NCBI GenBank assembly: GCA_012959275.1
Contig: DUDM01000043.1
Location: 2,910-66,909, forward strand
Direction: 5' to 3'
DNA length: 64,000 nt
Source of the DNA: Candidatus Poseidoniales archaeon
Lineage (GTDB): Archaea; Thermoplasmatota; Poseidoniia; Poseidoniales; Poseidoniaceae
Shown here: positions 2,093 through 25,821 of the stretch, piece after piece
Layout: the number at the start of each line of letters is the position of its first letter
How positions within the stretch are numbered: position 1 is the first letter of the stretch
Position numbers and translations under genes: made by a program
The notes under the pieces: generated by a model
Databases searched by the model: none
What the model was told of the DNA's origin: nothing
Seen by the model: only the letters and a program-made list of their open reading frames with translations

Positions 2093-2169
2093 GTTATTGT
2101 CGAGTGGCTTCGACTTTTTCAGTGTGTGTCATGATTTTGCTTATTCACTGCTACCTCTTCGCAGCCTGC

Positions 2170-2865: not shown

Positions 2866-2874
2866 GGTGTTCTA

Positions 2875-7581: not shown

Positions 7582-7693
7582 TTCCTATCAAAACCTCATC
7601 AATACTCACAAATCATCACCCAAAATCATCAGAAAAGAAGTTGCAAAGCCGGGAAAATGTAATTTATCTTTCCCAAATATTACTAAAATCCGC

Positions 7694-7708
7694 CTATACT
7701 ATAAATAC
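7694..7708 (+). promoter_or_regulatory. Putative archaeal TATA box/BRE for the 7758 surface-protein gene; GGAGG ribosome-binding site at 7746-7750
   Basis: ccgCCTATACTATAAATACgg lies about 50 nt upstream of the ATG at 7758, in an A/T-rich intergenic region. GGAGG sits 8 nt upstream of the start codon. Confidence 0.35.
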
Positions 7709-7757
7709 GGCAGGGTCTGTGCACGAAGGCACCGACTAATAGGTTGGAGGACTGAAT

Positions 7758-10700: not shown

Positions 10701-10931
10701 TCTGGAAACGTTGTAGCACTATCAGATAAAACTACCCAGATTCGCTATGGTGAACTCGACGATCCAGGCGCAGGCACTGATACTCTCGATGATGACAAGA
10801 GTGGAACAACAGGTGTTCCAACTTGGACATGGGGAGTTATCATCGGCATAGTCGTTGTAGCATTCGGAATTGGCGCATTCATCCTTAGCCGTGGTGGCGA
10901 GGGTGGAGAAGGCAAGGAATGGGATTATTGA
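7758..10931 (+). CDS. Large cell-surface protein (1057 aa): signal peptide, CARDB/Ig-like beta-sandwich domains, C-terminal TM anchor
   Basis: N-terminal signal peptide MKNIVPMTLILLMFASVFANTAW. CARDB-like segment (GDEVNFVVSVKNHGTNNVTEMNIEATIYLADG). Acidic, Thr/Asp-rich Ig-like repeats. C-terminal helix GVIIGIVVVAFGIGAFILS followed by RGGEGGEGKEWDY. Confidence 0.75.
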   Translation: MKNIVPMTLILLMFASVFANTAWIEMNENEMDGAADGRADDDVGILGILEPRATKTDTMTGELRNTVKAGDEVNFVVSVKNHGTNNVTEMNIEATIYLADGTVATDFAGNDLTWLDAVICDDAQSCPVQSLAAGAYLNGGSYSVRDASGAAIAWAAPLGAYTIAIELDVMSGDDDITNDEFTVDITVVNWYDIAIDLEWNPSVEQAEGAGPHDFTLTVSTDGSEEWSARSVVVDLMITGAALDTAVDGDGNDIKGTTTHETGTSQIVDVFFNESAPCDDPGPDNITGTADDGPCDARNGNGSRLVIDYQDSWTYSGTVTPDANANGGYQVEAALVNYTLYGAAAECQESGEVTIDNGPDGIEGTEDDIREIRTFMNICEVPVETDDNNSNNEDKITGFIGSYHNIGVSSLVIAQGYDSTGNGEATSMRGDQDEIDVGFSRLHAMVEHRGSSGTGPYDWEVTFVVTDVYDNNSVVATYTADECPAGVAPPYTHLDLGEGLTAQPAGYACSSHEFDSGTYKITATVAMVNPTNPDESSVDDSQTATVEARNHDPVISLSLTSEGDIVVGDIVSFDVSAFDAEDITGESLTYSWSRITTDSMSVDIGECSPSDDGAGGLTKGERTCAVPVDGSWATTLPVTVKVTDPHGGEASDKVDLKVWNRQVAEATAASDAVSISYDLTYMAVADFSITASDSAAIEGVLLGNSEEGADSVYVIDYAPVTNYGPGDVGSNALSITFPGSSTEDYSLWYQYPGQDWILLDGEAEQDGATNMKLEWVNLTSGTLNNGLLGIFNAAAGTGAVPANGVSNAIGVNMAGGLIAVQWTLENGGVDLLSGDKIQICSVTNANETCTSVDKDATQHLLTGTHGQVFDVTVSVINVNGANANVKTFTTTADAEVSPVPTTTFGSIANGSTAWTFTITTADAGNAVKLYVCWKDSTYEASQLTPDDLSCQPMDIADASVDITKPSVTSETVYHFSIFAEDSSGNVVALSDKTTQIRYGELDDPGAGTDTLDDDKSGTTGVPTWTWGVIIGIVVVAFGIGAFILSRGGEGGEGKEWDY

Positions 10932-11030: not shown

Positions 11031-11490
11031 TAACATCAACAGCACAGCAGTGAGGATTACAATCCTTGGTTGTGTTAATTTCTTGAAATTTTATGTAGCC
11101 GCATTTTGTTGGCAAAAGAAAATTCCACTTGATTTTCAAATGATTATCAGCTCAGGCCATTGGATTATTATTAAAATTGGAAATAATATTCAATGTCAAG
11201 TAATTTCGTCCTCTGATAATACTCCTGTTCTGGCTTAATCCCCATGCCATTTTTCAAATCCTCTAGGCAATATCGCCAAATTAGTTGGAAAATGGCCTCC
11301 GGCCGCGCCTAGTGTATAAGGGTCATCCTACTTACAAACGGATTGTTCTGCCAAGTGCCGGAGAATTGTTACGGAAAAGGGCCTAATCCGCTCTAAGTCT
11401 ATCGCTTTTTCAAATAAGATGTACCCCAACACTCATAAGGAAAACAATTACTCCAGCAGCCTGCATACAGTCCGTAAGGGGTTTGATGAC

Positions 11491-14400
11491 ATGATAAATG
11501 GAAGCAAGATGAAGAAGACAACAATCTGGGGTGGGCTCTTTAGCGCCCTCCTCCTTTGTGCACTGATGGCAATTATGCCATTCAGCAGCATGGTGGATAA
11601 CCCGGTGAGCGAGACTGACTATACAGAGTCAGAAACGGCAGAACAGAAAGATGATCCTTTCCACCTGCCCGAAACGATTGAACAAGTAGAATGGGAGTAT
11701 GCCCTCGAAGATGAACTTCAGGGTATGCGCGATGTAAACCAAAAAGCCTTCGTACACGATGGTGAAATTTCGGTGCTAACAAGCAGCGAACCTTTGCACT
11801 ATCTTGAAGCAGGCGCTTGGGAAAATATCGATACCAACATAGTACCAACCGCATTCGGCTGGGAAGTCTCGAAGAACGTCTTCAAGACTACATTCTCGTC
11901 TGATGTTGGAGCTGGTGTAGCGGTTCAGATGGACCCTAATGTTGACCCAATTATCGTGGGAATTGCCCCACAGATTGTAACTCTCGATGAAGCAGGCGTG
12001 GCGCCGGAAATGCACCATGTTGCACCTTCACATGATGCAATCAGCGTTGGTGGAAATGTAATCCGCTACCCTGTTGCAGATGGTTATGATTTGGATTATG
12101 AGGTTTCATCCGTACAGATGAAGCAGAACCTTGTTATCCGTCAACAGCCAGTTCTCGATGAATCCGTTGCTTGGTTCGGTCTACGCGAAATTATTCGCTT
12201 ACCAGCAGGCTATGCTCTATTCATCGGTGATGAAGTGGTTGGAGAAGAAATCGTCTCTACTCAAGAACTGATGACAATCCGTAGTCTTGAGACTGGAGAG
12301 GTATTAGCAGAAATTCCAGTACCAGTGGTATTGGAACCTGGAGCCGAAGAACAGTACACCGCTACTTTCTTCGTCAGTTTCACTAATGGACAAATCGTCT
12401 TGACTACAGCAATTGATACTGATTGGTTAATGGATGAGGACCGAGTTTTCCCTCTTTCTCTTGACCCAACAATCAAGCGCACGTCATCTACAGGAGGATA
12501 CTGCTATCGCTACTACGCATATTGCTACAGTGGAAATAGCCGTTATTTCTACCGCTATAATGCACGCATCTACTATCTACCTTGGAGCAAGTACCAGTTT
12601 AGTAGCAGCAATGCTATGCCTAGTGGCTCAACAACCTCCTCAGTAAAGTGGAAGCAATATGTTGGCTACAGCAATACCTGGGGAAGTAGTTCCTATGATG
12701 CTGCAATAATGATGACTTGTGGGACTGCAAGTCGTTATTCTTACAGTATTGCCAGTGCATCCTGTTCCAGCACTTTGCTTGGAATGCCCTCAAGTTCCCA
12801 GTATGGGAATACGAAGGCCCGCAAGATGGTTAGTTCCATTTGGAACAGTCCAAGCGTTGGAACCTTTTCCACCGGAACCGGTTGGAAAACAGTTACTGTA
12901 AATAGTGCATATGAGGGTATCATTACAAATGCTGCCAATAATTCTGCATCAATCGGTATGACTCACATCAATACTAACAGTAATTATTACTACATGTATG
13001 CCCGCTATGGCGGTTCATACGACAGTTATTTGGAAATCACCTATACTGGTGGTTCCGATAGCACTCCACCATCTGCTGATTTCGTACCATACGAGGTAAC
13101 ATCGTACAAGGAGGGTGCCCGTACTTTCTTCACCACCCTCACCGATCCCGCTGGTATTGACACAACATCGTCTGGAAACCCACGCCTTTTCTACAAAATA
13201 GGCAGCGGTTCATGGACTGGCGTTAGTGCATCAAGTATTGGAACCTGTAGCAGCAGTGCTGCAAAGTGTAGATTCAAGGCAACTACCGCAAGCATCAGTG
13301 CTGGCGACTCAGTTGACTACTACTGGGCTTTCCAAGACTTGGCATATGCCGCAGGAATGGCACAGTCAAACAACTTCGCCACACTACCTGCTGGTGGAAG
13401 TGGTTCACCAAGTTCAAACACACCACCATCTACAGTCTTTAATTTCGATGTTGAAGACGTGGCTAACGCAGGAACAGCCAGGAAGATGACCATCCTAACT
13501 ACTGATGTACACGCAGGAAACCGCTATACACCATCAAAGTGGTTCGACAGACAGGTCACCTATTACGACGACAATGATGAATATGTATTCGAGTTCGACA
13601 CCTCAGATTGTGGAAGCGGCGCTAGTTCATGTTTCTATGCAACTAGCTATTATTTCTACAGTCAATGGCAGATGCAGTGGACTACTTCACCATCTTCAGG
13701 ATATAATGGACTTGGTGGTACCAAGTCTGGTGATGCAAAATTCCACAAGGATGACTTCGGATACCTATCCATAACCACAAACAATGGGCCTGGAATGAAT
13801 TTGATTTATGTTTATGACAGCACCTCAAATAAGTGGGCAATGGTCGGATTAGGAGATGCAAGCACTGGAATCGATGAGCCACTTTCTGGCGGAGACGTTG
13901 AGCCCTCTTACAGGTCATCCTATGGATATACTCAGGCATACAACATCAAGGTGCCAGGGGATATCACTGGAACATTCGGTAAGTTTGATTTCAATAATAC
14001 TTACTCCTCGAGTAAGGCAAACTGGATGTGCGTTGGGACCAATGGATGGATTTACTTCTTCCGTTCTACCAGCAGTAATCCAATATGCACCTCTGGATAT
14101 TACTACATCTACAGTACCTCCTACAGGTGGAGTGGATTCGCAATGGGTAGCGGCTATTACGGTCGCATGGCAAGTAGCGGAGAGGTTTCCTCCAAGGTTG
14201 GAAGGGTCGCACCAACTCCTGATATTTATGCCCCTGAAATTGTACATTCAGCACTGAAGGACAGTCACTCAAGAGACAGGACCTTCACCTTTGAAATTAC
14301 AGATGCTGGGGACCCCCCATCCGGACTAAACACCTCGTCCGCTGCTGGCGTTGGGCCAACATTGTACTACACAATTACAGATCCTGATGGCACAGTTAAT

Positions 14401-17400
14401 GCGCAACAATCAAAGGTACTATCACCAGATGATACCCGTGCAAACTGTATAGCATCTACATGTGTTTGGAGTGCTGAGTTGACCGACATAGAGCGTGGCG
14501 CATCCCTATCATACCATACCACAGCAAGAGACATATCGACTGTAAGCAGTGGAACAAATAGTGTAACTACTTCTGCTAACAGTTTCGAAGTTGGAGACCC
14601 AAATAAGGTCTTCATCATAGAGTGGCACGACATGGGCTACACCAATTCATACACCTGTACTTATCAGGTCAAATTGTATGATGTAACCAATGAAATAGAG
14701 TTCCACTATGATACTGGCTGCAGGGTCTATTACGACTATGCAACTGTCGGCTATCAAGACAGTACTCGTACAAAGGGTGCAACTCTACGCACAGAACAGG
14801 GCTACATGGCTGGTGGAAATCCACATACTAACAACTACCGTATCACAACAGATGCAAGTAGCCACAGTTCAGAAACTTTTACCGCAGGATTGACTGAGAT
14901 TACCAATTACCAGACTGCAATTGCCGGTAATAGCAACGGTATGCCATACGGATACTATTGTGCTAGCTCCTACTACTGGAACTCTTACAAAAATGGCTGT
15001 GATGCTAACCTCGATATGCCTGATGGTTTCACTTTCGATTACTTCGGAAACACCTTCAATGGTAGTTCTTCTACAAGTCGTGTTATGATTTCAAGACAAG
15101 GTTCGATGTCATTGAAGAGTACATCCTCAACTCAACCTGAGCGCGCAATGACTACTTGGTACACGACAATGCCGAAACTACCATACTCTAGCAACACGTA
15201 CTCAAGAGCAAACTTGATTGCACCATGGTGGGGATACTACACATCCTACTACTGCTATGATAACACTGCTCTCGATTGTGGCGTACGCTACCGCGTAATG
15301 CCATTCGAAGGCAAGGGAACAGATATTGATGCTGACATCACTCAAGATACATCTTGGGATCTTGTTGACAGCCCGATTCGTGTTAACCCAAGCGGTGATT
15401 ACTTGTCCGTTAACGCTAACTTGAATATCGAGCCAGGCGTAGTGGTACAGGTTGCACAGGGCAAGGGAATTTCCTTTGACGGTGCTTGTGATACATTCAC
15501 AGTATCTGGAAATGATACTGATGGTGACAATAATCACGTTCGCTTTGAAGGACAATACGGCCAGACTTGGACCGGTATTGCCTTTACTGACAGTTGTACA
15601 ACAACTGATGGAACAAATGACCGCCACCAATTCTCATATGTAGACTTCGTAAATACTAGTGACTATGCAATTGCAGCAGGTAGCCGCCACGGCAGCAGCC
15701 CAAGCAGCAATGCAAATGTTGGAAACTTTACTATGGACCATGTAACCTTCAGTAATGTGAAGGGTGCCGTTTCACACGGTAGTGGACAAGGTACAGTATT
15801 CGATATCAGTGACTTCGAAGTCAACGATGCGAGCGAGAGTTGTTTCTTGTTCCCTGATGATGCAATTGTAACACTCACTGATGGAGAAATGGATGGTTGC
15901 AACAGCGACAATTCATACCAACATGGAGCAGTTACTGATGCAACCAGTGGCGCAAGTAGTTCCAGTACCGGTACTGCTTCTGGTTCACTCACTGTAGAGA
16001 ACGTAGCAATCACTGATTCTGAAGCAAACTTAATCCGTTCATTTGCAGAAAACATTTACATTTCAAATGTTTCTGCTACATCTAGCGCAAATCAGGCAAG
16101 ATATGCATTGAGGCTACTAGGTAGTGGAGGAAGCGGTACACACAGTGCTGTGATAAACAACTTTACTGCAACATCATATGGTTATGGTGTGAAAATTGGA
16201 GCAGAGGATTCCTACAGTTTAACTAATGTAGACATCGGAACTTCTACTTTAACGCTTAGCCCAGGAACATCGACGACCAGTGGACCTGTTGGAGATGATG
16301 CAGTTATCGATTCATTGGAAGCAGGTGGAATGGGCATTCAACGCACATTGCCAACAATGTCAAATATCGACCTCGGAACTGGTGAGTTATCTATTACTGG
16401 AAACAGCCCATCCTCAACGCAAACAAGCATCTCTGATCTTGATGCAGGCGGCATAGGAGTTTCTGGTTGTGGCTACAACCTATACTTCGGCAACGTGGAT
16501 ATCTCGGATACAAGCGATACTGGATACTTGAGCGGCAGTTGTTCAAGCAGTGCTGCACAAAACACCATCCTCGTTGAAGGCGGAACAATGGCAAGCAGCC
16601 AATCTTCTAACAACATCATCTATGCGCGCAACTCCAAGATAACTCTTGGTGGAGTGGCCATTACAGGTCAGACTGCAATGGGCAACTACGTTGCTAAGGC
16701 AAGCACCAACGGGCGCATCACCTTAATCGATGTCACCTTTGGAGGCAATGATTGTGCTGATGCAGGCGGCGATGCTGGTAATTGCTGGCTTGAGGTTTCC
16801 TCAAGCAGCGGTAGTATTTGGCTAGGTGGAATTGGAACAGCAACCACATTCAAGGAGAAGAATTCAGTTCGAACCCTGAAGCCTGGAACTACTGTAACAT
16901 CATTCGTGATGGACAGTTCCGGTGCATCCTTGTTCATGATTGGAACTCAGGTCACCGACTCCAATGGTGAAGCAGATGTCTGGACAATCTCTGGAACCTG
17001 TGTTAGTGCAGGATGTAGCAGCCACGACCATGGTACCTATTTCGATGCATATGGCCCTGCTGGAATTCACAGCGCTGCCAACACATCATTTGGACTCGGA
17101 GATGACACCTTCCTAAGATTAACACAACCACCAATCACTCTATCGGATAGCGGAATGGATTGTGCTTACTTAGCAACAAACCAGTCGATGTCAGCCCTTG
17201 ATACTGCTGGCGATGGCATTTATATCCTTGATGATGGTTCAATCCTATTGGATGCCGACCTAACACTAGATGGTTGTACAATACAGATGACTGAGTCAAA
17301 ATTCATCATCCGTAGTGATGCAACCAATTCCCCAACTCTAACTATCAACAATGGTGGAGAGTTGGAGATGATTAAAGGATCAGGCGGCACATTTTCAGAA

Positions 17401-20400
17401 TTGAAGGCAGCATCTGCAGCATATCCACTACACATCACTCTCGGTGATGGTGGAACTCTTGACTTGCAGGGTGTTTACGCCCGCAACTTTGCTCAGGACA
17501 GTACTCAACAGGGTGCTCTCATTATTGGCCCTGGAGCAACAGTCAGTTTGACTGACGGCACAGTAGTTTACGGGGATGCGGCAAGTAGCAAAGATATGGC
17601 GACCATCAAGGTAAACGGAGGAACACTTTCTGTTCTCGATGCAAGCGTAATCAACAATGGCGGTACAGGAACTGGAATTTGGTTTGAACAAACATCAAGC
17701 ACACTTTCTGACATTACTGTTAGCAATGCAGAAGTTGGAATGAAGTCGCATAATGCAGCACCTATAGTCAATGGATTTACTCTTTCTAACAATGATGTTG
17801 GATTGGATTTCTATGGTGGCATGTCTCTTCCTACTATTTACCGCAGTACCTTATTGTCTGGTGAGAGCAACGGATGGACAACCTACGGCTTTGATTTAAG
17901 TTCGTTAATCGGTAAGCAATACGTACAACTTGGTTTTGAGTCAGTCTTCGCGGGCGGAAACGCCCACCCAAGATACAATTACTACACAAGCAAGTATTAC
18001 AACATCTACGACCGCATGCAGTATGAGGTCACTCTTGATAACGGCGCAGTATTCAATTATTCAATCGATCAAGCCGGAAAGGACAGTGCAGGATATTGGG
18101 ATGACCCAACATCCGATAGTTCAGACTATGGTGGCTGGGGTAATTACAGCTGTGGCCTATATGGCTATGTGCAGAACCCTGCTTACCGAGATTATGGTTA
18201 TTATTACTATTTCCATAATTACGGACCCTACACTCAAAGCAGTAATGGCTACTATGGCGCAAACGCCGAACCAGATCAGTTCGGATTCCGCTGGGAAGCA
18301 GGAGAAACAAGCACCGCTAGTTCCTTGTATTACCCATACCATTACTGGGGATACTACTGGCCATCTTCCCAATTCGGAAGCAACTACCAAGGTGGAATCT
18401 ATGAACCACCATCCGGTTTTGATGGCTTGTGGAGTAATTACAATGTCTGTATTGATTACGCATATACATACTACCAGAGCCCTGGAACCGGCGCTCGTTT
18501 GGCAATGCCAATTATCGACACACTGAATACAGGTACTAATTCCGGAACCTCTGGAAATATTGTAGGATTGAAATTATACATCGATGTTCTACACAAAGGT
18601 GCCGATTACTATCAGGACCGCTTGGACTTCGTTGGACGTTCATCGAATAATCACAATGATATGGGTGATTGGGCACGTGAATCTGGAAAGCCTACCTTCA
18701 CTCAAGGAACAATCACTGGTGCAGATATAGGAATTGAGATTGGTGGAAACTTTGCAGCAGCAGTTGTTGAAAACGTTGAGATCACCAGCCCAACCACAAC
18801 TGGTTTGAAGGTCTCTGGTTCAACAGCATCCTCATTCGACTACCTGAATGTTTCAGGTGGAAGTTATGGAGCGTACACAACATTGACCAGCCGAGGCAAA
18901 CTCCATTTGAAGAATATTGACTTCGATAATCAAGGCGTTGCTGGTGTTTCTTATCTCAAGGACATAGCCGGTAGTATCTCTGGAAGTGTTACCAACAGCG
19001 CAGGTGCCGCAATTAGCTACGGTGTATTGACTACTGCCGAACGCAATTTAGGAATCGACCTTTCAGGAAATGCAATCGGAGTATTGACTGCAGGAAGTGG
19101 AGATATTAATTTGGAGGGCAACACCTTTGCTAATGCAAAGGACTTCGTAATAAGCGGGTCATCGACGGTGACATTTATTGATGGAACGGTAGATGAAAGT
19201 ACGGTAGACGTGTCAGGCAATGGTGTCTTCAATAGAGCCCGAAGCCTTATCGCATCTATTACTGCTGATTCAAACGATGTTGTCGGCGCTGAGGTATACC
19301 TGATGGATAGCTCTGGGAAACCTACTGGTAACGGCGTTACTGATGCTAATGGTGATGCAGATGGAATCATATACTATACTGCAGTTGTTAACAAGGCAGG
19401 ATTAACTAACCCTGTCCTAGCTGGATACAAGTTAGCAACGGTTGCACAGATTGGCGCATACAGTTCATCAACTGCAGATTTCCGCTACTACTATGATAGC
19501 GTAACTCTCGATGCGAACGCTGCAACAATTGCGGACGTTGCATTAACCAATAAGTTCGATGCAAGGGTTTGCTATAGTTTCACTAGTACTTCATACCATA
19601 TGATTGCACCATGTGCCAGCTCTCTTTCAACAAATGGAAAGAGAACAATTGGTACCATGGTGGAGTATGGATATTATGGAGCAGTAGATTGGGATATGTC
19701 TGGAAAGACGATCATGGTCGACGCACCATACATGTACCTCAAAGGTAAGAGTGGAACCAATATCAACGATTGGAGCGATAGCACCATTATCAATACAGGT
19801 TCTTACGATTATTATGGTACGACTAATTATCGTTCCACATACCCATATAATGCGAAATTCCACGTAGAAAATAGTACTATGATTGCTCTTTCAGGAGTGG
19901 ATGAAAACACTGGAGTGCCATTTGGTTTCGACCTCGGATATTATGCATGGTCAGATGTTAATCCATACTACAAGAACAGCACCTTTATTGGCCTGCAGAC
20001 AATCGCAGCAGCAAATGAATATGGAAACGTAATGCCTGATAGATTCGTCGTTGAAGACAACATTATTGTCAGCAACACACCTGTTGTACCAGGCTCAACC
20101 AGTTTCTACTATGATGAGATGTGTGTTGTGAACGGAGCAGTAAATGGTGCATCAGTTGCAAGGAACCAATTCTCTGGTTGCGCAATTGGAGTTCGCAGCA
20201 TGAATACTATCTACTCCTACTACTATGGGAGAAGCACATGGGGTGCTGATAACATGACCATCGAGGGTAATACCTTCGATGGCGGTGTACTCGATGTATG
20301 GTTCGCTCTTGGCAGTTATTCAGATGACAACGTGGTCAAAGATAACATCCACACGGGTGCTACTCAGACCGAATACGCAATTTATGCACAGGATAGAAAC

Positions 20401-23400
20401 ACTGTACGTCCGGTCATTGAAGGAAACACCATCTATAACTCGAAAGAACCAATCTACATGCGCGGTGCACTAGGCTGGGACATTAGCGAGAACACCATCT
20501 ATGGTGATGGAAATTCCGGACACGCTGGAATTTACGTCAAGGATGGATACGGTTCTATTGATGGAAACATCCTTATCGATGCAGATGGTGGAATCCTCGT
20601 AGACGGTCTATCCTATGGCTACTCAGCCTCGGTGACCAACAACGAGATCTACCAATCCAATGGAAGAACTGCAGTTAGTGCAGTCGGAATTTGGGCAGAA
20701 GATTGTGGAACATCAACTCTCGAGACTGGTGGCAATGACATTACCATAATGGGCAATGCACTTGTCACTGATGGATGCGATATCGAAGATACAGGCAGCG
20801 TATTTACCGGAACCGGCGGAAGCGGCGGAATGGTCTACACTGTCAACATCATGGCAGGTTATTTCGCACCACAGAACTTGAGCATTAACGAAGGAGACAC
20901 TGTCAAGTGGCGCCTACAGAATTACTCGAGTGGCACAAACTACCAACACGGTACCATCTCAAATGATACCGATGGAAGTGGCTCACCACTCTGGGATTCT
21001 GGTGCAATGAACTTGGGAGGTACCTTCACCCACCTCTTCACCACTGCTGGAACCTACAACTACTCTTGTACAAACCACCCTACCACTATGTGGGGAACAA
21101 TCACTGTTGCCTCAGGTTCAACCTCATCTTTCACCAGCATCGGATTAGATGTTGTGGGAAGTAATGATGATGTTTCCTTGAATGGTACAGAAATCAGCGG
21201 CTTCACTACTGCTTACGAGCAATCTGGTGGAAGCCTCTTCCTGAATGGTGGAGCTGATTTGGAAGGTGGCGACTATGCAGTTGACATCGATGGAACTGAT
21301 GTTTCATCAGATGGCGGAATGTTGTCAGCAACCTCTGCTACTGGAGTAGGTCTATACTTCACCGGTGGTGGTGCTCTTGCACTAGTCGATTTATCGACTG
21401 ATGCACCTCAGGGTGTCTACATCGATGGAAGCACAGATGGATTGTTCGACTGGAATGGTGGAACTGTCTACAGTGGTACTGGTCTCTATGCGGTCGACAA
21501 GGCTGAAGGAGATATTCAGAACATGACTTGGACAGACGCAAGCACCCAAATCTATGCGGGTAGCGACACCAAGATTACCAGTGTTGGAAACACACTCGAC
21601 GAGAACAAATTGGTAGTTGTCACCGGTGCAGAAGTTCATGAAGCAAACTTGCTTGACTTGAACGTTAACCACTTAGGTGCAGCATCAAGCAACGTTGGAC
21701 TGTTGATTACTTCCGAGAGCGGCAACAAGGCAGCATACGTTAGCCCTGACATGCGCAATACCGGAGTATTGGCTGTTGGAACATCTGGTGACGCTGGAGA
21801 CTTATCCGACTGGTTCGGTAATGTTGACAACCCATCTGATGACCTGATGCCTGGTGTTATGTCAAGCGATGGCGCTGGTGAAGACTTCATGGCTACATGG
21901 GATGAGACAAACTTGTTCCTCGCTCTAACTGGAGTCGACATGGATAATGGAGATCTAATGATCTTCCTAGACACTGCTGATGATGGAAGCACAGACGGCT
22001 GGGAGTGGGACGGTACAACACCATCCCTCGGCTACAGCGCAAACTATGCTTTCTGGGCAGAGGACGGTAGCGATTCGCCAAATGATGGAGATACAACTTA
22101 CAGTTACTCCTTGAAGAAGTGGCGCGGTGACAAGTGGGATGACAGCCTAGGCTGCACCAACATGGCCGCTCACGTCGGATGGACGGATAACACCAACACA
22201 GAGTTGAAGATTCCGTGGGATTGTATCGGAAGCCCAAGCAACCGCTGGGTCCGCATGTCAGTAGTTGTTCTTGAGGAGACTGGTGGCGTAGTTGCCAGCA
22301 ACCACCCAAGCACCGGCTACCTCAGCATGAACCTCGGCAAGGCTAACCTTGGCGATGGTACTCTATCTGATGAGCGCTTAAACTACCGCAGTTATATCGG
22401 TAGCAACTCGCCAAGCCCATCTGAGGATTACAACATCTTAGCAAAGGTAGCTGCAGATTGCGCAGAAGACTGGGGCAACATCGACGGACTAGATATGTCA
22501 GAAAACCGCGACGAGGACATCGACATTCTACGTGCATGTCCAATCATCACTGGTATTGAAGACGTTTCATACGATGAAGACAGTGGAGCCCAAACCATCT
22601 CCTTGACAGACAAGGCAGATGATGTACAGGATTCGGCAGCTTCTCTATCATGGACTCTTGAAAGCGATGTTGATGCTGATGGCGACTTGTTAACTGTAGT
22701 TCTAGTCGCTCACGACTTGACTATCACGCCTAAGGACAACGAGTTCGGCACCTACCTGATTTTACTAACTGTAGAAGACAGCAATGGTCTAAGCGCTTCC
22801 AAGTCGATGTTGATTACCGTCAACAACGTCAACGATGCACCAACAATCTGCAACACAGGACGCACCGATTGTATGCCAGTGTTCAGCGATGATGGATTCG
22901 ATAACCTAAACGTTCTCGATGAAGGATTCGGTAGCCACAGCAAGCCACTCGGTTTGATTGCAAACAGCGCTGGTTCATACATCACCGATCAGGCCAACGA
23001 GCAAACACAGACTCTATCTAACTCAGAGAATGTACCTCAGGCTTACATCTTCGGTGCAAGCGTACCAGCTGAGTGTGGCGCATTCAGCGTTGCAGTTGCC
23101 AACAATGAGTTGAGCATCACAGAAGTAGCAGATAACGAACTTGGTGGAGTTTGTACAGTCACTCTAACATTGAGCGACGGTGCAAGCGTCAACGATGCAG
23201 CAACAAGTGTTGATGTTGACTTCACAGTCAACCCAGTCAACGATGTGCCAGTTATCCCAGAGTACGATGTCAATACCGATGCACACCTCACCACCGGTGA
23301 GGGGGTTGCAGTTGCAACACCATGGTCAGTATCAGTGACAGAGGACACAGGCTGCGTAAATGCAGTTTGTGCTAACACCGATGCTCTAACCTTCGACCTA

Positions 23401-25008
23401 TCTGGCTTGAAGGCTGATAACGACCACAATGATGCAGACTTAACTTGGACTTGGGTAGAGACATCAAGTTGTGATGTTGACAATTACTTCGAGGATATTT
23501 CCTTTAACGGAAACGATTTGGAGTTCACCCTGATTCAGGATGCAGCAACCAACGTGCCATCTGAGGAAATTGATTTCTTGGATGACGGTGGAATACACCA
23601 GCAAGTGCCACTCAGTGGAGAATACTGTCCGATTAAGGTTGTACTGAGCGATTCGCCAAGTGCACCTTCGTACATCCCTAACTATGGTCTAACTACTGCA
23701 ACATACAACCAAGAGACCACCTCCACAATCTTCAGCATACGTGTTGAGAATACCCGTGAGATGGTAGCAGACTACTTGTTAGATGTAGACACTGGCTTTG
23801 ACTTTAACAGTGTCAACTTCATCATGCCAGGAACTAACATCCCAATTGATGTTGACATCCAGCACGAAGGAGATGAGGGACCATACAAGTACGACCAACT
23901 ACTCAAGGTTCAGTTCTTGAGCAACGGTGCTGGCGGATTAGCCACCAGAGACACACAGTTCATCGTACCACCAGCATGGGGACAATCTGTCAGCCTTGGT
24001 AGCAAGGTACTGATTGATGAGTCAACCACCCGTGTCGGAGTGCGTGTTGACGTCTTGACTTGTAAGGCAGCTTCCTGTCCAAGCCCAAGTGCAGCAACAC
24101 CAACTGACTTCATCACCAACAGCCCAGCAGCACACCGTGCAGCAGACACACCTAACTCCGCATGGAGCGAGCCAGGAGCAATCGGATACGATGCTACTAC
24201 TGGTGTCTACTCACAACGCAGACCTGCACTAGAAGATGGCAACTGGTCAAACAATGCAATGTTCTCATCATTGATTGCATCTGACCCATCAGGTATTCTA
24301 GACAGCGGACAAGATCTACCAGTAATGGTCGACACAATGGCACCATCTGCGGTACCATCTTTCGCACCAGGTCTAGTGGCAATCAGCGCAGCAGGATTAT
24401 TCGTTGCTGGTCTAATGTTGGCAAGTCAACGCCGCATCGATGATGATGAAGAGTTTGTACAATCAGCACTTGTTGATGACGAGCAGGCAGTCAGCCCAGT
24501 TATTGCTACCATCTTGATGGTCGCAATAACAGTGGTTTTGTCTGGTGTAGTATACGTATGGGCCAGTGATCTAGCTGACCAGCCAAGCAAGTCGGTTCCA
24601 CGAATCGCCTTCAAGGTTGAGAAGACAGACCCAGGTACCAACGGATACTGGTCCATCATCGTGACCAGCGCAAAGGAGCCAATAGCAACACAGGCGACTG
24701 TAGTAATGGTCGAGTGGGTCAACGATACCGGAAGTCAAATCGAGTCATTCAAGTTGTCTGATTCTGAGGGCACATACGGTTTCGCCCCGGTCAATTCGGA
24801 AAGCTTCATCACATTCTCTGACAGTATCAAGTGTGAGGCTGCGGATGAGTGCACCTCAACATATGGAGATGGAGATGCAATCCACATCAGGATGAGCGAC
24901 CCGAGTGGTTTCCTGTTAAAGGACAACGGAGTACGTGTTACACTGAAGTACGTCCCACAGGGAGTTGGAACTGCAAGCGTTCTGAAGACCTTCAACCTTG
25001 AAATTTGA
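11491..25008 (+). CDS. Giant cell-surface protein (about 4500 aa; uninterrupted ORF 11419..25008): signal peptide, parallel beta-helix repeats, cadherin-like repeats, embedded cupredoxin domain, C-terminal TM anchor plus pilin-like module
   Basis: Single 13.6-kb ORF with no stop. Likely start at MINGSKMKK (11491) or MKK (11509), which places the signal peptide MKKTTIWGGLFSALLLCALMAIMPFSS at the N-terminus. Ser/Thr/Gly/Tyr/Asn-rich with many N-x-S/T sequons. Beta-helix-like repeats (e.g. NNGGTGTGIWFEQTSSTLSDITVSNAEVGMKS). Cadherin-like repeats with NVNDAPTI / NPVNDVPVI. Cupredoxin domain at 20830-21110. C-terminal hydrophobic anchor ...GLFVAGLMLASQRR followed by a DUF1628/archaeal-pilin-like segment. 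Confidence 0.8.
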   Translation: MINGSKMKKTTIWGGLFSALLLCALMAIMPFSSMVDNPVSETDYTESETAEQKDDPFHLPETIEQVEWEYALEDELQGMRDVNQKAFVHDGEISVLTSSEPLHYLEAGAWENIDTNIVPTAFGWEVSKNVFKTTFSSDVGAGVAVQMDPNVDPIIVGIAPQIVTLDEAGVAPEMHHVAPSHDAISVGGNVIRYPVADGYDLDYEVSSVQMKQNLVIRQQPVLDESVAWFGLREIIRLPAGYALFIGDEVVGEEIVSTQELMTIRSLETGEVLAEIPVPVVLEPGAEEQYTATFFVSFTNGQIVLTTAIDTDWLMDEDRVFPLSLDPTIKRTSSTGGYCYRYYAYCYSGNSRYFYRYNARIYYLPWSKYQFSSSNAMPSGSTTSSVKWKQYVGYSNTWGSSSYDAAIMMTCGTASRYSYSIASASCSSTLLGMPSSSQYGNTKARKMVSSIWNSPSVGTFSTGTGWKTVTVNSAYEGIITNAANNSASIGMTHINTNSNYYYMYARYGGSYDSYLEITYTGGSDSTPPSADFVPYEVTSYKEGARTFFTTLTDPAGIDTTSSGNPRLFYKIGSGSWTGVSASSIGTCSSSAAKCRFKATTASISAGDSVDYYWAFQDLAYAAGMAQSNNFATLPAGGSGSPSSNTPPSTVFNFDVEDVANAGTARKMTILTTDVHAGNRYTPSKWFDRQVTYYDDNDEYVFEFDTSDCGSGASSCFYATSYYFYSQWQMQWTTSPSSGYNGLGGTKSGDAKFHKDDFGYLSITTNNGPGMNLIYVYDSTSNKWAMVGLGDASTGIDEPLSGGDVEPSYRSSYGYTQAYNIKVPGDITGTFGKFDFNNTYSSSKANWMCVGTNGWIYFFRSTSSNPICTSGYYYIYSTSYRWSGFAMGSGYYGRMASSGEVSSKVGRVAPTPDIYAPEIVHSALKDSHSRDRTFTFEITDAGDPPSGLNTSSAAGVGPTLYYTITDPDGTVNAQQSKVLSPDDTRANCIASTCVWSAELTDIERGASLSYHTTARDISTVSSGTNSVTTSANSFEVGDPNKVFIIEWHDMGYTNSYTCTYQVKLYDVTNEIEFHYDTGCRVYYDYATVGYQDSTRTKGATLRTEQGYMAGGNPHTNNYRITTDASSHSSETFTAGLTEITNYQTAIAGNSNGMPYGYYCASSYYWNSYKNGCDANLDMPDGFTFDYFGNTFNGSSSTSRVMISRQGSMSLKSTSSTQPERAMTTWYTTMPKLPYSSNTYSRANLIAPWWGYYTSYYCYDNTALDCGVRYRVMPFEGKGTDIDADITQDTSWDLVDSPIRVNPSGDYLSVNANLNIEPGVVVQVAQGKGISFDGACDTFTVSGNDTDGDNNHVRFEGQYGQTWTGIAFTDSCTTTDGTNDRHQFSYVDFVNTSDYAIAAGSRHGSSPSSNANVGNFTMDHVTFSNVKGAVSHGSGQGTVFDISDFEVNDASESCFLFPDDAIVTLTDGEMDGCNSDNSYQHGAVTDATSGASSSSTGTASGSLTVENVAITDSEANLIRSFAENIYISNVSATSSANQARYALRLLGSGGSGTHSAVINNFTATSYGYGVKIGAEDSYSLTNVDIGTSTLTLSPGTSTTSGPVGDDAVIDSLEAGGMGIQRTLPTMSNIDLGTGELSITGNSPSSTQTSISDLDAGGIGVSGCGYNLYFGNVDISDTSDTGYLSGSCSSSAAQNTILVEGGTMASSQSSNNIIYARNSKITLGGVAITGQTAMGNYVAKASTNGRITLIDVTFGGNDCADAGGDAGNCWLEVSSSSGSIWLGGIGTATTFKEKNSVRTLKPGTTVTSFVMDSSGASLFMIGTQVTDSNGEADVWTISGTCVSAGCSSHDHGTYFDAYGPAGIHSAANTSFGLGDDTFLRLTQPPITLSDSGMDCAYLATNQSMSALDTAGDGIYILDDGSILLDADLTLDGCTIQMTESKFIIRSDATNSPTLTINNGGELEMIKGSGGTFSELKAASAAYPLHITLGDGGTLDLQGVYARNFAQDSTQQGALIIGPGATVSLTDGTVVYGDAASSKDMATIKVNGGTLSVLDASVINNGGTGTGIWFEQTSSTLSDITVSNAEVGMKSHNAAPIVNGFTLSNNDVGLDFYGGMSLPTIYRSTLLSGESNGWTTYGFDLSSLIGKQYVQLGFESVFAGGNAHPRYNYYTSKYYNIYDRMQYEVTLDNGAVFNYSIDQAGKDSAGYWDDPTSDSSDYGGWGNYSCGLYGYVQNPAYRDYGYYYYFHNYGPYTQSSNGYYGANAEPDQFGFRWEAGETSTASSLYYPYHYWGYYWPSSQFGSNYQGGIYEPPSGFDGLWSNYNVCIDYAYTYYQSPGTGARLAMPIIDTLNTGTNSGTSGNIVGLKLYIDVLHKGADYYQDRLDFVGRSSNNHNDMGDWARESGKPTFTQGTITGADIGIEIGGNFAAAVVENVEITSPTTTGLKVSGSTASSFDYLNVSGGSYGAYTTLTSRGKLHLKNIDFDNQGVAGVSYLKDIAGSISGSVTNSAGAAISYGVLTTAERNLGIDLSGNAIGVLTAGSGDINLEGNTFANAKDFVISGSSTVTFIDGTVDESTVDVSGNGVFNRARSLIASITADSNDVVGAEVYLMDSSGKPTGNGVTDANGDADGIIYYTAVVNKAGLTNPVLAGYKLATVAQIGAYSSSTADFRYYYDSVTLDANAATIADVALTNKFDARVCYSFTSTSYHMIAPCASSLSTNGKRTIGTMVEYGYYGAVDWDMSGKTIMVDAPYMYLKGKSGTNINDWSDSTIINTGSYDYYGTTNYRSTYPYNAKFHVENSTMIALSGVDENTGVPFGFDLGYYAWSDVNPYYKNSTFIGLQTIAAANEYGNVMPDRFVVEDNIIVSNTPVVPGSTSFYYDEMCVVNGAVNGASVARNQFSGCAIGVRSMNTIYSYYYGRSTWGADNMTIEGNTFDGGVLDVWFALGSYSDDNVVKDNIHTGATQTEYAIYAQDRNTVRPVIEGNTIYNSKEPIYMRGALGWDISENTIYGDGNSGHAGIYVKDGYGSIDGNILIDADGGILVDGLSYGYSASVTNNEIYQSNGRTAVSAVGIWAEDCGTSTLETGGNDITIMGNALVTDGCDIEDTGSVFTGTGGSGGMVYTVNIMAGYFAPQNLSINEGDTVKWRLQNYSSGTNYQHGTISNDTDGSGSPLWDSGAMNLGGTFTHLFTTAGTYNYSCTNHPTTMWGTITVASGSTSSFTSIGLDVVGSNDDVSLNGTEISGFTTAYEQSGGSLFLNGGADLEGGDYAVDIDGTDVSSDGGMLSATSATGVGLYFTGGGALALVDLSTDAPQGVYIDGSTDGLFDWNGGTVYSGTGLYAVDKAEGDIQNMTWTDASTQIYAGSDTKITSVGNTLDENKLVVVTGAEVHEANLLDLNVNHLGAASSNVGLLITSESGNKAAYVSPDMRNTGVLAVGTSGDAGDLSDWFGNVDNPSDDLMPGVMSSDGAGEDFMATWDETNLFLALTGVDMDNGDLMIFLDTADDGSTDGWEWDGTTPSLGYSANYAFWAEDGSDSPNDGDTTYSYSLKKWRGDKWDDSLGCTNMAAHVGWTDNTNTELKIPWDCIGSPSNRWVRMSVVVLEETGGVVASNHPSTGYLSMNLGKANLGDGTLSDERLNYRSYIGSNSPSPSEDYNILAKVAADCAEDWGNIDGLDMSENRDEDIDILRACPIITGIEDVSYDEDSGAQTISLTDKADDVQDSAASLSWTLESDVDADGDLLTVVLVAHDLTITPKDNEFGTYLILLTVEDSNGLSASKSMLITVNNVNDAPTICNTGRTDCMPVFSDDGFDNLNVLDEGFGSHSKPLGLIANSAGSYITDQANEQTQTLSNSENVPQAYIFGASVPAECGAFSVAVANNELSITEVADNELGGVCTVTLTLSDGASVNDAATSVDVDFTVNPVNDVPVIPEYDVNTDAHLTTGEGVAVATPWSVSVTEDTGCVNAVCANTDALTFDLSGLKADNDHNDADLTWTWVETSSCDVDNYFEDISFNGNDLEFTLIQDAATNVPSEEIDFLDDGGIHQQVPLSGEYCPIKVVLSDSPSAPSYIPNYGLTTATYNQETTSTIFSIRVENTREMVADYLLDVDTGFDFNSVNFIMPGTNIPIDVDIQHEGDEGPYKYDQLLKVQFLSNGAGGLATRDTQFIVPPAWGQSVSLGSKVLIDESTTRVGVRVDVLTCKAASCPSPSAATPTDFITNSPAAHRAADTPNSAWSEPGAIGYDATTGVYSQRRPALEDGNWSNNAMFSSLIASDPSGILDSGQDLPVMVDTMAPSAVPSFAPGLVAISAAGLFVAGLMLASQRRIDDDEEFVQSALVDDEQAVSPVIATILMVAITVVLSGVVYVWASDLADQPSKSVPRIAFKVEKTDPGTNGYWSIIVTSAKEPIATQATVVMVEWVNDTGSQIESFKLSDSEGTYGFAPVNSESFITFSDSIKCEAADECTSTYGDGDAIHIRMSDPSGFLLKDNGVRVTLKYVPQGVGTASVLKTFNLEI
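20830..21110 (+). other. Cupredoxin (type-1 blue copper, plastocyanin/halocyanin-like) domain embedded in the giant surface protein
   Basis: MVYTVNIMAGYFAPQNLSINEGDTVKWRLQNYSSGTNYQHGTISND...GTYNYSCTNHPTTMWGTITVA. Upstream His ligand (YQHG) and C-x2-H-x3-M (YSCTNHPTTM) on a beta-sandwich-like sequence, the T1 copper ligand set. In frame with the giant ORF. Confidence 0.6.
24487..25008 (+). other. Archaeal type IV pilin / DUF1628 (archaeal flagellin N-terminal-like) module forming the last 173 aa of the giant ORF
   Basis: AVSPVIATILMVAITVVLSGVVYVWASD... matches the hallmark hydrophobic N-terminus of archaeal class-III-signal-peptide pilins (consensus roughly [KR]G-VSPVIATVLLIAITVVLAAVLY), followed by a beta-rich domain of about 140 aa. 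Here it is preceded by a TM anchor (24337-24435) and a 17-aa acidic linker instead of a short basic leader. Confidence 0.5.
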
Positions 25009-25128: not shown

Positions 25129-25821
25129 GTGTTAGCGATGATACGTTGTGTCGCATTCGATTGCGACGGGGTCTTAGCTGATGCAATTAGTTCCTGGAGA
25201 ACTTTGCACGATCATTTCGGCACCGATACAGGAGAGATGCTGCGACGCTTCATCGCTAAGGAAATTAGCGATGAGGAATTCATGCGCTATGATATCCAAT
25301 TGTGGAAATCCGTTCAAGCGGAGATTCACAGGGATGATTTGTTTCGAGCATATGCAGGCATCAAACTGATTACCGGTGCCCGTGAAGTGGTTGCAAGATT
25401 GCAAGAGGATGGAATACTGGTTGTTATTATCAGTGCAGGAATCGATATATTTGTTGGAGCAATCGCTGCAATGTTGAAAGTCGATGATTGGATTGCCAAT
25501 GGCTTCGAATTCGATGATGATGGATTCCTTTTAGATGAAGGTATCGTGAGAGTTTCTGCCCACAAAAAGGCAAGTGCTGTTGCACGAGTAATAGAGATGC
25601 ATGACCTTAGTGCTGAGGAAGTAGCCTGTATAGGTGATAGCGAGGTCGATTTGTCGATGCATGTGGAGGGTTCAACCTTCATTGGATTCAATCCAACGAG
25701 GAAGAGTTCCTTTGATGCGTTTGCAGAAGCGGGAGTTCCAATTGTTGAGAGTCGGGATTTGCGAGATATTTGGGTTCACCTGTTTGGTCAACCGTTTGAG
25801 GCGAAGGCATCAAGCCACTGA
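25129..25821 (+). CDS. HAD-superfamily hydrolase, phosphoserine-phosphatase-like (subfamily IB)
   Basis: Motif I FDCDGVL (DxDG), motif IV IGDSEVD near the C-terminus, alpha-helical cap region between them. 230 aa; an alternative start at 25138 (MIRC...) is possible. Confidence 0.7.
   Translation: MLAMIRCVAFDCDGVLADAISSWRTLHDHFGTDTGEMLRRFIAKEISDEEFMRYDIQLWKSVQAEIHRDDLFRAYAGIKLITGAREVVARLQEDGILVVIISAGIDIFVGAIAAMLKVDDWIANGFEFDDDGFLLDEGIVRVSAHKKASAVARVIEMHDLSAEEVACIGDSEVDLSMHVEGSTFIGFNPTRKSSFDAFAEAGVPIVESRDLRDIWVHLFGQPFEAKASSH

Follow-up and report, generated by a model that had tools for sequence, protein, structure and literature searches.

A giant surface protein of marine Poseidoniales continues, in frame and past its membrane anchor, into a genuine and complete archaeal type IV pilin, identified as such by HMM and by fold. 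The gene fusion is genuine and conserved in every related Poseidoniales locus that we examined. We analysed a window of 64,000 nt (the whole stretch of DNA, in which all coordinates below are positions). No description of a giant surface protein ending in a type IV pilin was found in the searchable literature, in agreement with an earlier note on this DNA that had taken the architecture to be undescribed. The junction between the two parts resembles the cleavage site of genuine pilin leaders, and the reading that we prefer, with a probability of roughly 0.45, is that of a prepilin whose 'leader' would be the giant protein with its TM hairpin, and from which a class III signal peptidase would release a single minor pilin for each copy of the giant protein. 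The arrangement suggests a previously unrecognised coupling of a giant surface protein with pilus-type machinery in the abundant marine Poseidoniales.

Architecture of the giant gene

The frame is free of interruption from 11419 to its stop codon at 25006-25008; judging by homologue N-termini, the true start is probably the ATG at 11509 (MKKTT...). The features of the gene and its neighbourhood are as follows.

2104-2865, + strand: ABC ATPase (Pfam), upstream syntenic
2875-7581, + strand: FtsX/MacB-type permease, 1,568 aa (Pfam), upstream syntenic
7758-10931, + strand: 1,057-aa protein with signal peptide and C-terminal TM helix, last of the upstream syntenic block 2104..10931
11419..25008, + strand: giant surface protein gene, single open frame of 4,529 codons counted from the first ATG
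11509..11589, + strand: predicted Sec signal peptide, MKKTTIWGGLFSALLLCALMAIMPFSS
20860..21108, + strand: cupredoxin (plastocyanin/azurin-like) domain inside the ectodomain (PF00127, 25.8 bits, cut-off 21.2)
24352..24372, + strand: VPSFAP[GS] motif (VPSFAPG here), just outside TM1
24373..24435, + strand: TM1 LVAISAAGLFVAGLMLA plus SQRR, predicted stop-transfer anchor with positive charge inside (hydropathy, AF2, homologues)
24436..24486, + strand: acidic, putatively cytoplasmic loop IDDDEEFVQSALVDDEQ, 17 aa
24487..24489, + strand: invariant Ala(-1), Ala in 79/79 aligned loci and in all homologues inspected
between 24489 and 24490, + strand: predicted class III signal peptidase site (sequence pattern)
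24490..24576, + strand: pilin H-domain (alpha-1 helix), VSPVIATILMVAITVVLSGVVYVWASDLA (PF07790, TIGR02537; conservation 0.98)
24577..25005, + strand: pilin head, Ig-like beta-sandwich, 143 aa (AF2 mean pLDDT 87.2; Foldseek)
25129..25821, + strand: HAD hydrolase gene (Pfam), immediately downstream, synteny marker

The layout is thus VPSFAP motif, TM helix, RR, acidic loop, invariant Ala, invariant pilin helix and beta-sandwich head. Translated, 23800-25008 gives ...VPSFAPGLVAISAAGLFVAGLMLASQRR-IDDDEEFVQSALVDDEQ-AVSPVIATILMVAITVVLSGVVYVWASD... up to the stop, exactly the in-frame succession of anchor, 17-aa acidic linker and pilin helix that the earlier note had described. Its claim that neither stop nor start separates the two parts holds as well, since they share one 4,529-codon frame and the window sequence has no in-frame ATG, GTG or TTG from RR to AVSP. 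Hydrophobic 19-mers with a Kyte-Doolittle value >1.6 fall into two regions, residues 4311-4337 and 4355-4386, and the pilin motif begins at residue 4,357 of 4,529. In the remaining TM-anchored proteins of the window, 6 to about 55 residues follow the C-terminal TM helix, roughly the 10-40 aa originally given.

The last 173 residues match PF07790 with 43.4 bits (curated cut-off 25.2) and TIGR02537 with 45.7 bits (curated cut-off 20), far above chance, which bears out the pilin identity proposed before. The module also matches the Haloferax volcanii pilus subunit 8fj5_A in sequence (E = 1.9e-6, to its residues 12-64). AF2 models the first 20 residues of the H-domain as a helix with block-mean pLDDT of 86 and 95, and the head, carrying two Cys and one N-x-T sequon, agrees with the globular domain of about 140 aa expected earlier. 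Among the best 15 Foldseek matches in the PDB there are only archaeal pilins, archaellins and FlaF, led by the H. volcanii pilin, a Methanococcus maripaludis archaellin and the Natrinema and Cuniculiplasma pilins.

TM1 proper spans 24373-24423 and SQRR 24424-24435; AF2 gives TM1 as a helix with low confidence, and homologues share a GLFVxAL core followed by [SG]RR. The loop behind it has a net charge of -8 in the window, because it holds five D and three E and no K or R. It lies inside both ranges seen in the linkers of the other 80 loci (56 unique), namely 15-18 aa and -7 to -11. At the N-terminus, homologues P0122, P0126, P0130 and P0136 begin with the basic-then-hydrophobic pattern common to full-length homologues, so that MKKTTIWGGLFSALLLCALMAIMPFSS is predicted to be a Sec signal peptide. 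Since this peptide, the RR behind TM1 and the orientation of class III signal peptides all fit, we infer the topology put forward in the earlier note: the ectodomain would lie outside, followed by TM1, a cytoplasmic acidic loop, a pilin helix oriented N-in/C-out and an external head.

Conservation of the fusion

The same layout is found in frame in 80/80 related Poseidoniales loci, with both families represented; these loci come from 79 assembly records, which are independent assemblies. Wherever the flank allows, the upstream frame is open over all of its ~3,380 codons (80 loci), and linkers differ in length between loci by whole codons only. Among independent gene calls, seven (3,639-5,559 aa) end in the pilin module, with the same junction in those inspected, and those of full length (4,372-5,559 aa) all start with a signal peptide and finish with the pilin. 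Protein record P0121 is 97% identical across the pilin module, with a lone I-to-M change in the junction shown. In 80/80 loci the pilin stop codon is closely followed by the HAD hydrolase gene. The giant protein is colinear from N- to C-terminus with its orthologues in L089 (43% identity), L091 (35%, 4,481 residues) and L090 (31%), and L089 and L091 have the same three-gene order directly upstream of it. Each 500-aa block between residues 1001 and 4500 matches 47-84 fetched loci, with a median identity of 33-53%.

These data effectively refute the idea that we are dealing with two genes, whether a tail-anchored giant protein joined to a downstream pilin gene by an assembly or sequencing error, as the earlier note had allowed, or a pilin translated from an internal start. 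An assembly fusion is excluded by the in-frame module in all loci of independent assemblies and by the full-length calls. Some database calls do seem to speak for separate pilins: P0067, P0074 and P0091 start inside the linker, and P0099 appears standalone. However, the linker Met residues found in other loci are not conserved, and the long-read assembly behind P0099 (L085) is full of frameshifts. Likewise, the seeming break in L005 is a pair of overlapping ORFs and indicates a frameshift. Calls that look 'standalone' are artefacts of frameshifts or fragments at contig edges, and a genuine gene fission was found in none of the loci inspected.

Cleavage or retention at the junction

We compared the junction with those of 108 canonical, N-terminally led relatives carrying the same helix. 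Their consensus is [DN](-4), [ED](-3), x(-2) and [AG](-1) followed by VSPVIA, with A, G or S found at -1. The fused junction, D-[DE]-x-A, matches it: positions -3 and -4 are acidic (D/E(N) and D(N,S), respectively, in the 56 unique linkers), and VSPVIA follows the Ala without variation. The earlier note had concluded that the module stays uncleaved from the missing basic residue at -2. This argument does not stand, as only 22/108 canonical relatives have K/R there, and 'DAVS' is the site in two listed PibD substrates of H. volcanii, PilA1 and PilA3 (PMC4371748, Table 1). Also, P0269, a canonical pilin of 409 aa with the leader MKIDRRVNFDKA directly before VSPVIATILMVAITVVLSGVLYVWA, has a helix near-identical to that of the fused module, and the EF-2 on its contig is 90-91% identical to EF-2 proteins named Poseidoniales or Poseidoniaceae. 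Given this likeness, the same class III signal peptidase and a type-IV-pilus-type platform would most likely serve both.

On the reading that we prefer, a giant surface protein of ~4,300 residues would be exported by Sec, and stop-transfer TM1, the acidic cytoplasmic loop and the type IV pilin would follow. The giant protein and the TM hairpin would stand in for the prepilin leader peptide, with TM1 and its RR setting the N-in orientation, a job normally done by basic leader residues. The pilin helix would re-insert, exporting the head, and the peptidase would cut between A and VSPVIA on the cytoplasmic face. The products would be the giant protein, held by TM1 and carrying a short acidic tail, and exactly one mature pilin for each copy, so that the pilin could only be a minor subunit, initiating or terminating. 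A pilus-type structure would in this way be placed beside the giant protein, and probably be bound to it.

Several observations count against such processing. The K/R found at -5/-6 in most canonical relatives is missing from the fused loop, and we know of no class III peptidase substrate with a TM helix in its leader. Two independent cleavage products should tolerate fission, which we found in no locus inspected. No pilus ATPase, platform or peptidase genes occur in the window or the fetched flanks, and the fusion extends to a locus bearing the name Thalassarchaeum (L074). In the summary by Rinke et al. (PMC6461757), the first MGIIb genomes have no motility genes, and the archaellum operon is confined to half of the MGIIb genera.

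It is nearly as likely that the module is a permanently uncleaved, pilin-like second anchor, with the hairpin of TM1, loop and pilin helix intact and the giant protein tethered in the membrane. In that case its only place in a pilus of canonical pilins would be that of the lowest subunit, embedded in the membrane, or it would bundle laterally with other copies through its invariant helix; in both cases the giant protein would be physically linked to a pilus base or would cap pilus growth. The covalent tether to a fibre envisaged in the earlier note is therefore one of two nearly equal possibilities. The fusion is kept without exception, and a 1:1 ratio with a 4,300-aa protein would make no sense for a major pilin. 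The narrow range of loop length and charge, together with the conserved TM1 core (TM1 conservation is 0.73, higher than in the ectodomain), suggests a lasting role of the hairpin itself, and the missing basic residues at -5/-6 fit here too. However, a plain loop residue ought to vary as much as the remainder of the linker (conservation 0.58), whereas the Ala is invariant and the -4 to -1 pattern is that of genuine leaders of the cleaved type. To our knowledge, uncleaved prepilins are not assembled in the characterised type IV systems. The helix is all but identical to its counterpart in a canonical Poseidoniales pilin, a sign that both use one enzyme and one set of partners.

A less probable alternative is that the module derives from a pilin but no longer serves any type IV filament, its membrane-proximal Ig-like domain and helix having been turned to envelope architecture. 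It could bind the surface layer in the manner of ArlF/ArlG, or organise a coat of the giant protein, with no need for a pilus ATPase or platform. This would suit the lack of pilus machinery nearby, the standing of the giant gene as a syntenic core gene of the order, as expected of a basic envelope component, and its occurrence in the Thalassarchaeum-named locus. The soluble domains of FlaF and FlaG also turn up in the fold search, with E = 5e-4 to 5e-3, and JGI automatically names family members 'FlaG/FlaF family flagellin'. Yet the best matches in fold and sequence are filament-forming pilins, the helix, near-invariant and close to that of the canonical Poseidoniales pilin, bears the signature of contacts with a filament core or assembly machinery, and an exapted anchor should no longer have a cleavage-type junction.

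Comparison with known systems

The archaeal Pilin_N/DUF1628 pilins (H. volcanii PilA1-6, PDB 8fj5; Natrinema PilA1/2; Cuniculiplasma CdiPB, PDB 8rey) share with the fused module the fold, a helix plus beta-sandwich, and the helix sequence itself, A followed by VSPVI(A/G)xILMVAITV. In PilA1 and PilA3 an acidic residue precedes the -1 Ala, as in the fused junction. The H. volcanii paralogues share a nearly identical H-domain (PMC4371748); in Poseidoniales the sharing is between the fused module and a canonical pilin. In known archaeal pilins, however, the precursor is small and the motif comes within its first 10-30 residues or so; here an ectodomain of giant size, a TM helix and an acidic loop come first, and the loop has no basic residue close to the site. 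ArlF/ArlG (FlaF/FlaG), the archaellum stator proteins, likewise combine an N-terminal hydrophobic helix with an archaellin/pilin-fold beta-sandwich, and would also resemble the module in being membrane-anchored components outside the filament shaft. However, their fold matches are weaker than those of true pilins, the giant gene lies outside any archaellum operon, and its junction and H-domain are of the DUF1628 type.

In bacterial modular type IV pilins and tip adhesins, such as Streptococcus sanguinis PilB/PilC, or PilY1 with minor pilins, the pilin module is N-terminal with the extra domain after it, and for this reason the two stay joined upon a single cleavage. The giant fusion would resemble them in combining a pilin with a large adhesive or functional module as a low-abundance subunit that adds to pilus function. 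Its order is reversed, the large part coming first, so that an extra TM helix is needed to restore topology and cleavage would separate the parts.

The VPSFAP motif reaches a mean column conservation of 0.95, versus 0.63-0.73 in the flanking ectodomain and TM1 (79 loci). By eye it looks PGF-CTERM-like. As in PGF-CTERM/archaeosortase tail anchors, a short conserved Pro-containing motif (here PSF-AP[GS]) precedes a TM helix and an Arg cluster; unlike them, it is not C-terminal, a further 190 residues following, and no NCBIfam sorting-signal model matches it. A literal PGF occurs in the distant homologue P0137. Finally, the cupredoxin domain of the ectodomain carries its C-x2-H-x4-M motif at 21067, reading CTNHPTTM, and PF00127 is also recorded on the distant homologue in L090.

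The pilin module at the end of the giant protein

The ORF at 11419-25008 on the + strand is one unbroken frame of 4,529 codons. Close to its end the translation reads VPSFAPGLVAISAAGLFVAGLMLASQRR / IDDDEEFVQSALVDDEQ / AVSPVIATILMVAITVVLSGVVYVWASD, with about 143 further residues before the stop at 25006-25008. The pilin helix begins at residue 4,358 of 4,529, and 190 residues lie C-terminal to the motif, the TM helix TM1 and RR. The segments follow each other in this order:

24352-24372, + strand: VPSFAPG motif, just outside TM1
24373-24423, + strand: TM1
24424-24435, + strand: SQRR
24436-24486, + strand: acidic linker
24487-24489, + strand: Ala(-1), the residue just before the pilin helix
24490-24576, + strand: pilin helix
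24577-25005, + strand: pilin head

An earlier note had described the pilin as fused in frame, with neither a stop nor a start between the two parts. Indeed, there is a single frame and no in-frame ATG, GTG or TTG from RR to AVSP in the window, which rules out an internal translation start here; the Met seen in other linkers is not conserved. The observation that the window's other TM-anchored proteins end soon after their TM helix also stands, with a measured range of 6 to about 55 residues in place of 10-40.

The assignment of the C-terminal 173 residues to the archaeal pilins was borne out by both profile models. PF07790 (Pilin_N) matches them with 42-43.4 bits (cut-off 25.2), and TIGR02537 (archaellin/type IV pilin N-terminal domain; cut-off 20) scores 38.1 bits on the module alone and 45.7 bits with a 223-residue query that includes anchor and linker. 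There is also a sequence match (E = 1.9e-6) to 8fj5_A, a type IV pilus subunit of Haloferax volcanii, and this alignment opens exactly at the AVSPVIG of 8fj5_A. An AlphaFold2 model of the module (mean pLDDT 87.2) has a 27-residue helix followed by a beta-sandwich. The 15 PDB structures that Foldseek ranks highest for this model are without exception archaeal pilins, archaellins or FlaF, with 8fj5_A again on top (E = 2.5e-5, TM-score on target 0.56) and FlaF and FlaG ranking beneath true pilins. An earlier model with TM1 included agreed with this. Archaeal pilins have a small residue (G/A/S) at -1 directly before a hydrophobic H-domain of ~20-30 residues; the module has Ala there, invariant in 79 loci, before a helix of 29 residues, and its predicted alpha-1 helix and Ig-like beta-sandwich head are those of solved archaeal pilins. 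By sequence and predicted fold, the module belongs with the DUF1628/Pilin_N pilins.

Parts of the pilin head (query residues ~105-160) also match other large secreted proteins that lack the helix (P0123, P0151, P0141, P0142, P0146), with 26 such matches in the 2,981-aa P0123. The whole head or just one of its sub-motifs may also serve as a repeat unit elsewhere. Besides Pilin_N, a Pfam scan of all 4,529 residues matched a cupredoxin domain only (PF00127, 20860-21108), which lies in the giant ectodomain and carries a type-1-copper-like C-x2-H-x4-M motif, CTNHPTTM, at 21067; PF00127 is also recorded on a distant homologue (in locus L090), and a similar copper-type motif is visible in the homologue P0127. 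The first ATG (11419) adds 30 residues that are missing from the inspected homologues, whose N-termini open directly with the signal peptide. These N-termini indicate that the true start is probably the ATG at 11509 (MKKTT...), immediately before the signal peptide. Rfam, promoter and terminator scans of 23500-25500 were empty, the promoter model being bacterial and hence uninformative here.

Conservation of the fusion

With the final 223 residues of the giant protein as query, a protein search returned many homologues of 43-50% identity, laid out as V(P/A)SFAP[SG], TM helix, [SG]RR, acidic linker and AVSPVIATILMVAITVVLSG. Prokaryotic genomes, sampled at one per species, gave at least 531 related stretches, and we analysed the best 80 loci. 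Apart from three contigs in bacterial MAGs, these come from MAGs of Poseidoniales (Marine Group II), with both families represented, or from unclassified euryarchaeal MAGs; the fusion is present in loci named Thalassarchaeaceae and Thalassarchaeum (L066, L074). The three contigs carry the archaeal locus under the labels Yoonia sp. (L003), Verrucomicrobiales bacterium (L026) and 'uncultured bacterium' (L002), which looks like binning contamination of public MAGs.

When the orthologous loci were compared for a fusion versus a separate pilin gene, the pilin helix was in frame with the upstream ORF in 80/80 of these best loci, and the upstream frame was open through all ~3,380 codons in every locus with a 10 kb flank. 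The sole seeming exception, L005, consists of two ORFs, whose overlap indicates a frameshift. The giant protein is colinear and 31-72% identical over the loci of the in-frame comparison, and orthologues are colinear along its whole length at 31-43% identity. Six full-length gene calls of 4,372-5,559 aa (P0122, P0126, P0130, P0135, P0136, P0137) each have an N-terminal Sec-type signal peptide and the module at the extreme C-terminus. In the HMMER search that gave these six calls, exhaustive over 1.84 billion representatives, a complete pilin module, helix included, stood at the extreme C-terminus only in the giant family. A separate record, P0121, is 97% identical across the module and has the same junction with one I-to-M change. 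The alternative raised in the earlier note, that assembly or sequencing had joined a tail-anchored giant protein to an adjacent pilin gene, is hardly credible: it is essentially excluded by the 80 in-frame loci, the whole-codon linkers and the full-length gene calls.

A candidate standalone pilin, P0099, was rejected as a frameshift artefact of the long-read assembly L085. In this Pilon-polished sequence (positions 1-10590) the giant gene is split into ~20 small ORFs, yielding the spurious entry; in L088, from the same assembly series, the EF-2 and amino-acid kinase genes are split. Gene calls that start within linker sequence fall into fragments of 77-116 aa (P0139-P0149) and full-length pilin modules on 4.6-13.8 kb contigs (P0067, P0074, P0091).

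Literature searched for the architecture, for pilins or giant proteins of Poseidoniales and for an MGII prepilin peptidase yielded nothing relevant. The architecture has, as the earlier note supposed, no description or interpretation in those sources, and only automatic annotation flags the domain: the NCBI pipeline names the full-length MEC8576648.1 (4,578 aa) 'archaellin/type IV pilin N-terminal domain-containing protein', and the JGI name for family members is 'FlaG/FlaF family flagellin'. A giant protein that ends, after a TM hairpin, in a prepilin-type module is a new arrangement of a domain already auto-annotated. The giant protein differs from bacterial modular pilins in domain order.

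The junction and the fate of the pilin

The module had been read as an uncleaved anchor because its -2 residue (counting back from the helix) is not basic. This reasoning fails, for only 22/108 canonical relatives carry K/R there. These relatives are non-redundant pilin precursors, small or modular, with the same helix at residues ~8-30 behind an ordinary N-terminal leader; 86 have no K/R at -2, of which 54 have D/E and 32 have no charged residue at that position. Compared with class III signal peptide proteins, the fused module misses the N-terminal position behind a short leader and the charged -2 (Q in the window), the latter being missed by many canonical relatives too. The consensus of the 108 leaders has K/R at -5/-6, D/N at -4, E/D at -3, mostly E, K, D or Q at -2, and A or G at -1. 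From this comparison, the fused junction, D-[DE]-x-A↓VSPVIA (the arrow marking the candidate class III signal peptidase site), equals the clade's N-terminal class III consensus from -4 to -1, and differs from canonical leaders solely in the absence of the distal basic residues, whose orienting role we infer the RR after TM1 takes over. In H. volcanii PilA1 and PilA3 the PibD site is given as 'DAVS', and the general requirement at -1 is G, A or S (PMC4371748).

A canonical Poseidoniales pilin of 409 aa (P0269), MKIDRRVNFDKA↓VSPVIATILMVAITVVLSGVLYVWA, has a helix near-identical to the fused one. Its surroundings are a housekeeping region, and the EF-2 encoded on its contig shares 90-91% identity with EF-2 proteins that bear the name Poseidoniales or Poseidoniaceae. 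This pair, with its near-identical helices, parallels the six PilA paralogues of H. volcanii, which have one H-domain in common (PMC4371748).

Column conservation by segment, computed over 79 aligned loci
Last ectodomain stretches: 0.63-0.67
VPSFAP[GS] motif: 0.95
TM1: 0.73
Linker: 0.58
Ala(-1): 1.0
29-residue pilin helix: 0.98
Pilin head: 0.67

The 56 distinct linkers span 15-18 residues and have a net charge of -7 to -11; their -4 is D (rarely N or S), their -3 is D or E (rarely N), and their -2 is unconstrained (A 19, M 14, Q 7, E 6, T 4, G 2, and V, L, R and S 1 each). Segment conservation and linker data together show two sharply conserved islands, one bordering TM1 on its outer side and the other bordering the pilin helix on its inner side, with a loop of set length and charge between them.

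The outer island, VPSFAP[GS], nearly matches the pilin helix in conservation and by eye only resembles a PGF-CTERM-type sorting motif; a distant homologue, P0137, has a literal PGF at this position. Sorting-signal families (e.g. TIGR04126) matched neither the 223-aa query (max E-value 1) nor five anchor segments of 41-42 aa (max E-value 10). Membership in PGF-CTERM was rejected, being without HMM support: motif, TM helix and RR are all there, but, unlike in PGF-CTERM anchors, the signal is not at the extreme C-terminus. No mention of an archaeosortase with Poseidoniales was found in the literature searched.

As to topology, we infer that the N-terminal signal peptide would send the ectodomain through Sec, that TM1 and RR would halt transfer, that the acidic loop would remain cytoplasmic, and that the pilin helix would re-insert N-in/C-out with the head exported. 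A class III peptidase would then cut at A↓V, leaving a TM1-anchored giant protein and one mature pilin. Since there would be one pilin per giant protein, the released pilin would be a minor, initiating or terminating subunit beside it. We prefer this processed model, at a probability of roughly 0.45, with the uncleaved reading nearly equal; the invariant Ala(-1), the leader-like pattern from -4 to -1 and the helix common to a canonical pilin all point to it. If uncleaved, the hairpin would persist and the module would be a tether, which could enter a filament solely at the very base, as a membrane-embedded subunit, or could bundle with copies of itself. This second reading is a serious but somewhat weaker contender, and gene fission being wholly absent, the fixed length and charge of the loop and the conserved TM1 core all speak for it.

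A filament-independent role of the module, like that of ArlF/ArlG, is unlikely. Such a role would fit a core gene with no machinery close by, but it accounts poorly for the invariant helix and junction. Junction, helix and gene context also set the giant protein apart from ArlF/ArlG, the neighbours of its gene being an ABC/FtsX transporter, a 1,057-aa protein and a HAD hydrolase, with no archaellum operon. More speculative still, and quite improbable, is a doubly processed polyprotein cassette, in which VPSFAP[GS] and A↓VSPVIA would both be processing sites, the hairpin of TM1, RR and acidic loop would be excised as a spacer, and the ectodomain would come free of its own anchor and be passed to the co-translated pilin, non-covalently or by sortase-like transfer, to be carried on a type-IV-pilus-like fibre. 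The conserved MacB/FtsX-type ABC machine encoded upstream may aid extraction. If true, this would be a new route for showing a giant adhesin on an archaeal pilus.

The cell surface of Poseidoniales is, to our knowledge, essentially unknown. Among the planktonic archaea of surface oceans, this group (Marine Group II) is described as the most abundant and as having no cultured representatives (PMC6461757). The giant protein is a syntenic core surface protein of the group, and all related loci examined have the prepilin-type junction inside it. Cleavage would extend class III signal peptidase substrates to leaders with a TM helix and thousands of residues, and would make this a polyprotein route to one pilin per giant protein; the uncleaved form would be a pilin-based membrane tether of a new kind. 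In both cases type IV filament biology would gain a link to a giant adhesin-like protein, which bears on particle attachment by Poseidoniales.

Gene neighbourhood

A HAD hydrolase gene follows the pilin stop codon in 80/80 of the best loci. Neither the window nor the fetched flanks contain a gene for a pilus ATPase or platform protein of PilB/PilC type or for a peptidase such as PibD, FlaK or EppA, and the 91 fetched loci have no further pilin genes or T2SSE-type ATPases. The archaellum operon occurs in all MGIIa genera and in only half of the MGIIb genera, the first MGIIb genomes having been summarised as without motility (Rinke et al., PMC6461757).

Directly before the giant gene, in both families, lies a cluster (2104-10931 in the window, 926-9560 in L089, 1-9139 in L091) of an ABC ATPase, an unusually large FtsX/MacB-type permease (~1,550 aa; 1,529-1,623 aa) and an anchored protein of ~1,050 aa (1,057 aa in the window) with a signal peptide, a C-terminal TM helix and no Pfam match. 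MacB-type machines act by mechanotransmission on extracytoplasmic substrates, and a functional link between this cluster and the giant protein is therefore conceivable.

The distant high-GC homologue in L090 (1-1028 and 10001-23119), which lies on a 3.0-Mb contig and shows 31% identity, retains both the TM hairpin and the pilin fusion, has a literal PGF before TM1 and lacks the ABC/FtsX neighbours. A T2SSF (PilC-like) gene is found ~9.9 kb upstream in this locus only, with two small membrane-protein ORFs also ~9-10 kb upstream; on the downstream side the locus shares PolD small subunit and CinA with the window. Also downstream in the window, at 25838-41452, is an alpha-glucan utilisation cluster. 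Its members are a solute-binding protein with two permeases and an ATPase; an alpha-amylase of 1,042 aa that is membrane-anchored and has a glycogen-binding module; a glycogen phosphorylase-like gene; a GH77 4-alpha-glucanotransferase; and an anchored GH57 enzyme of 1,490 aa with a glucodextranase-type C-terminal module.
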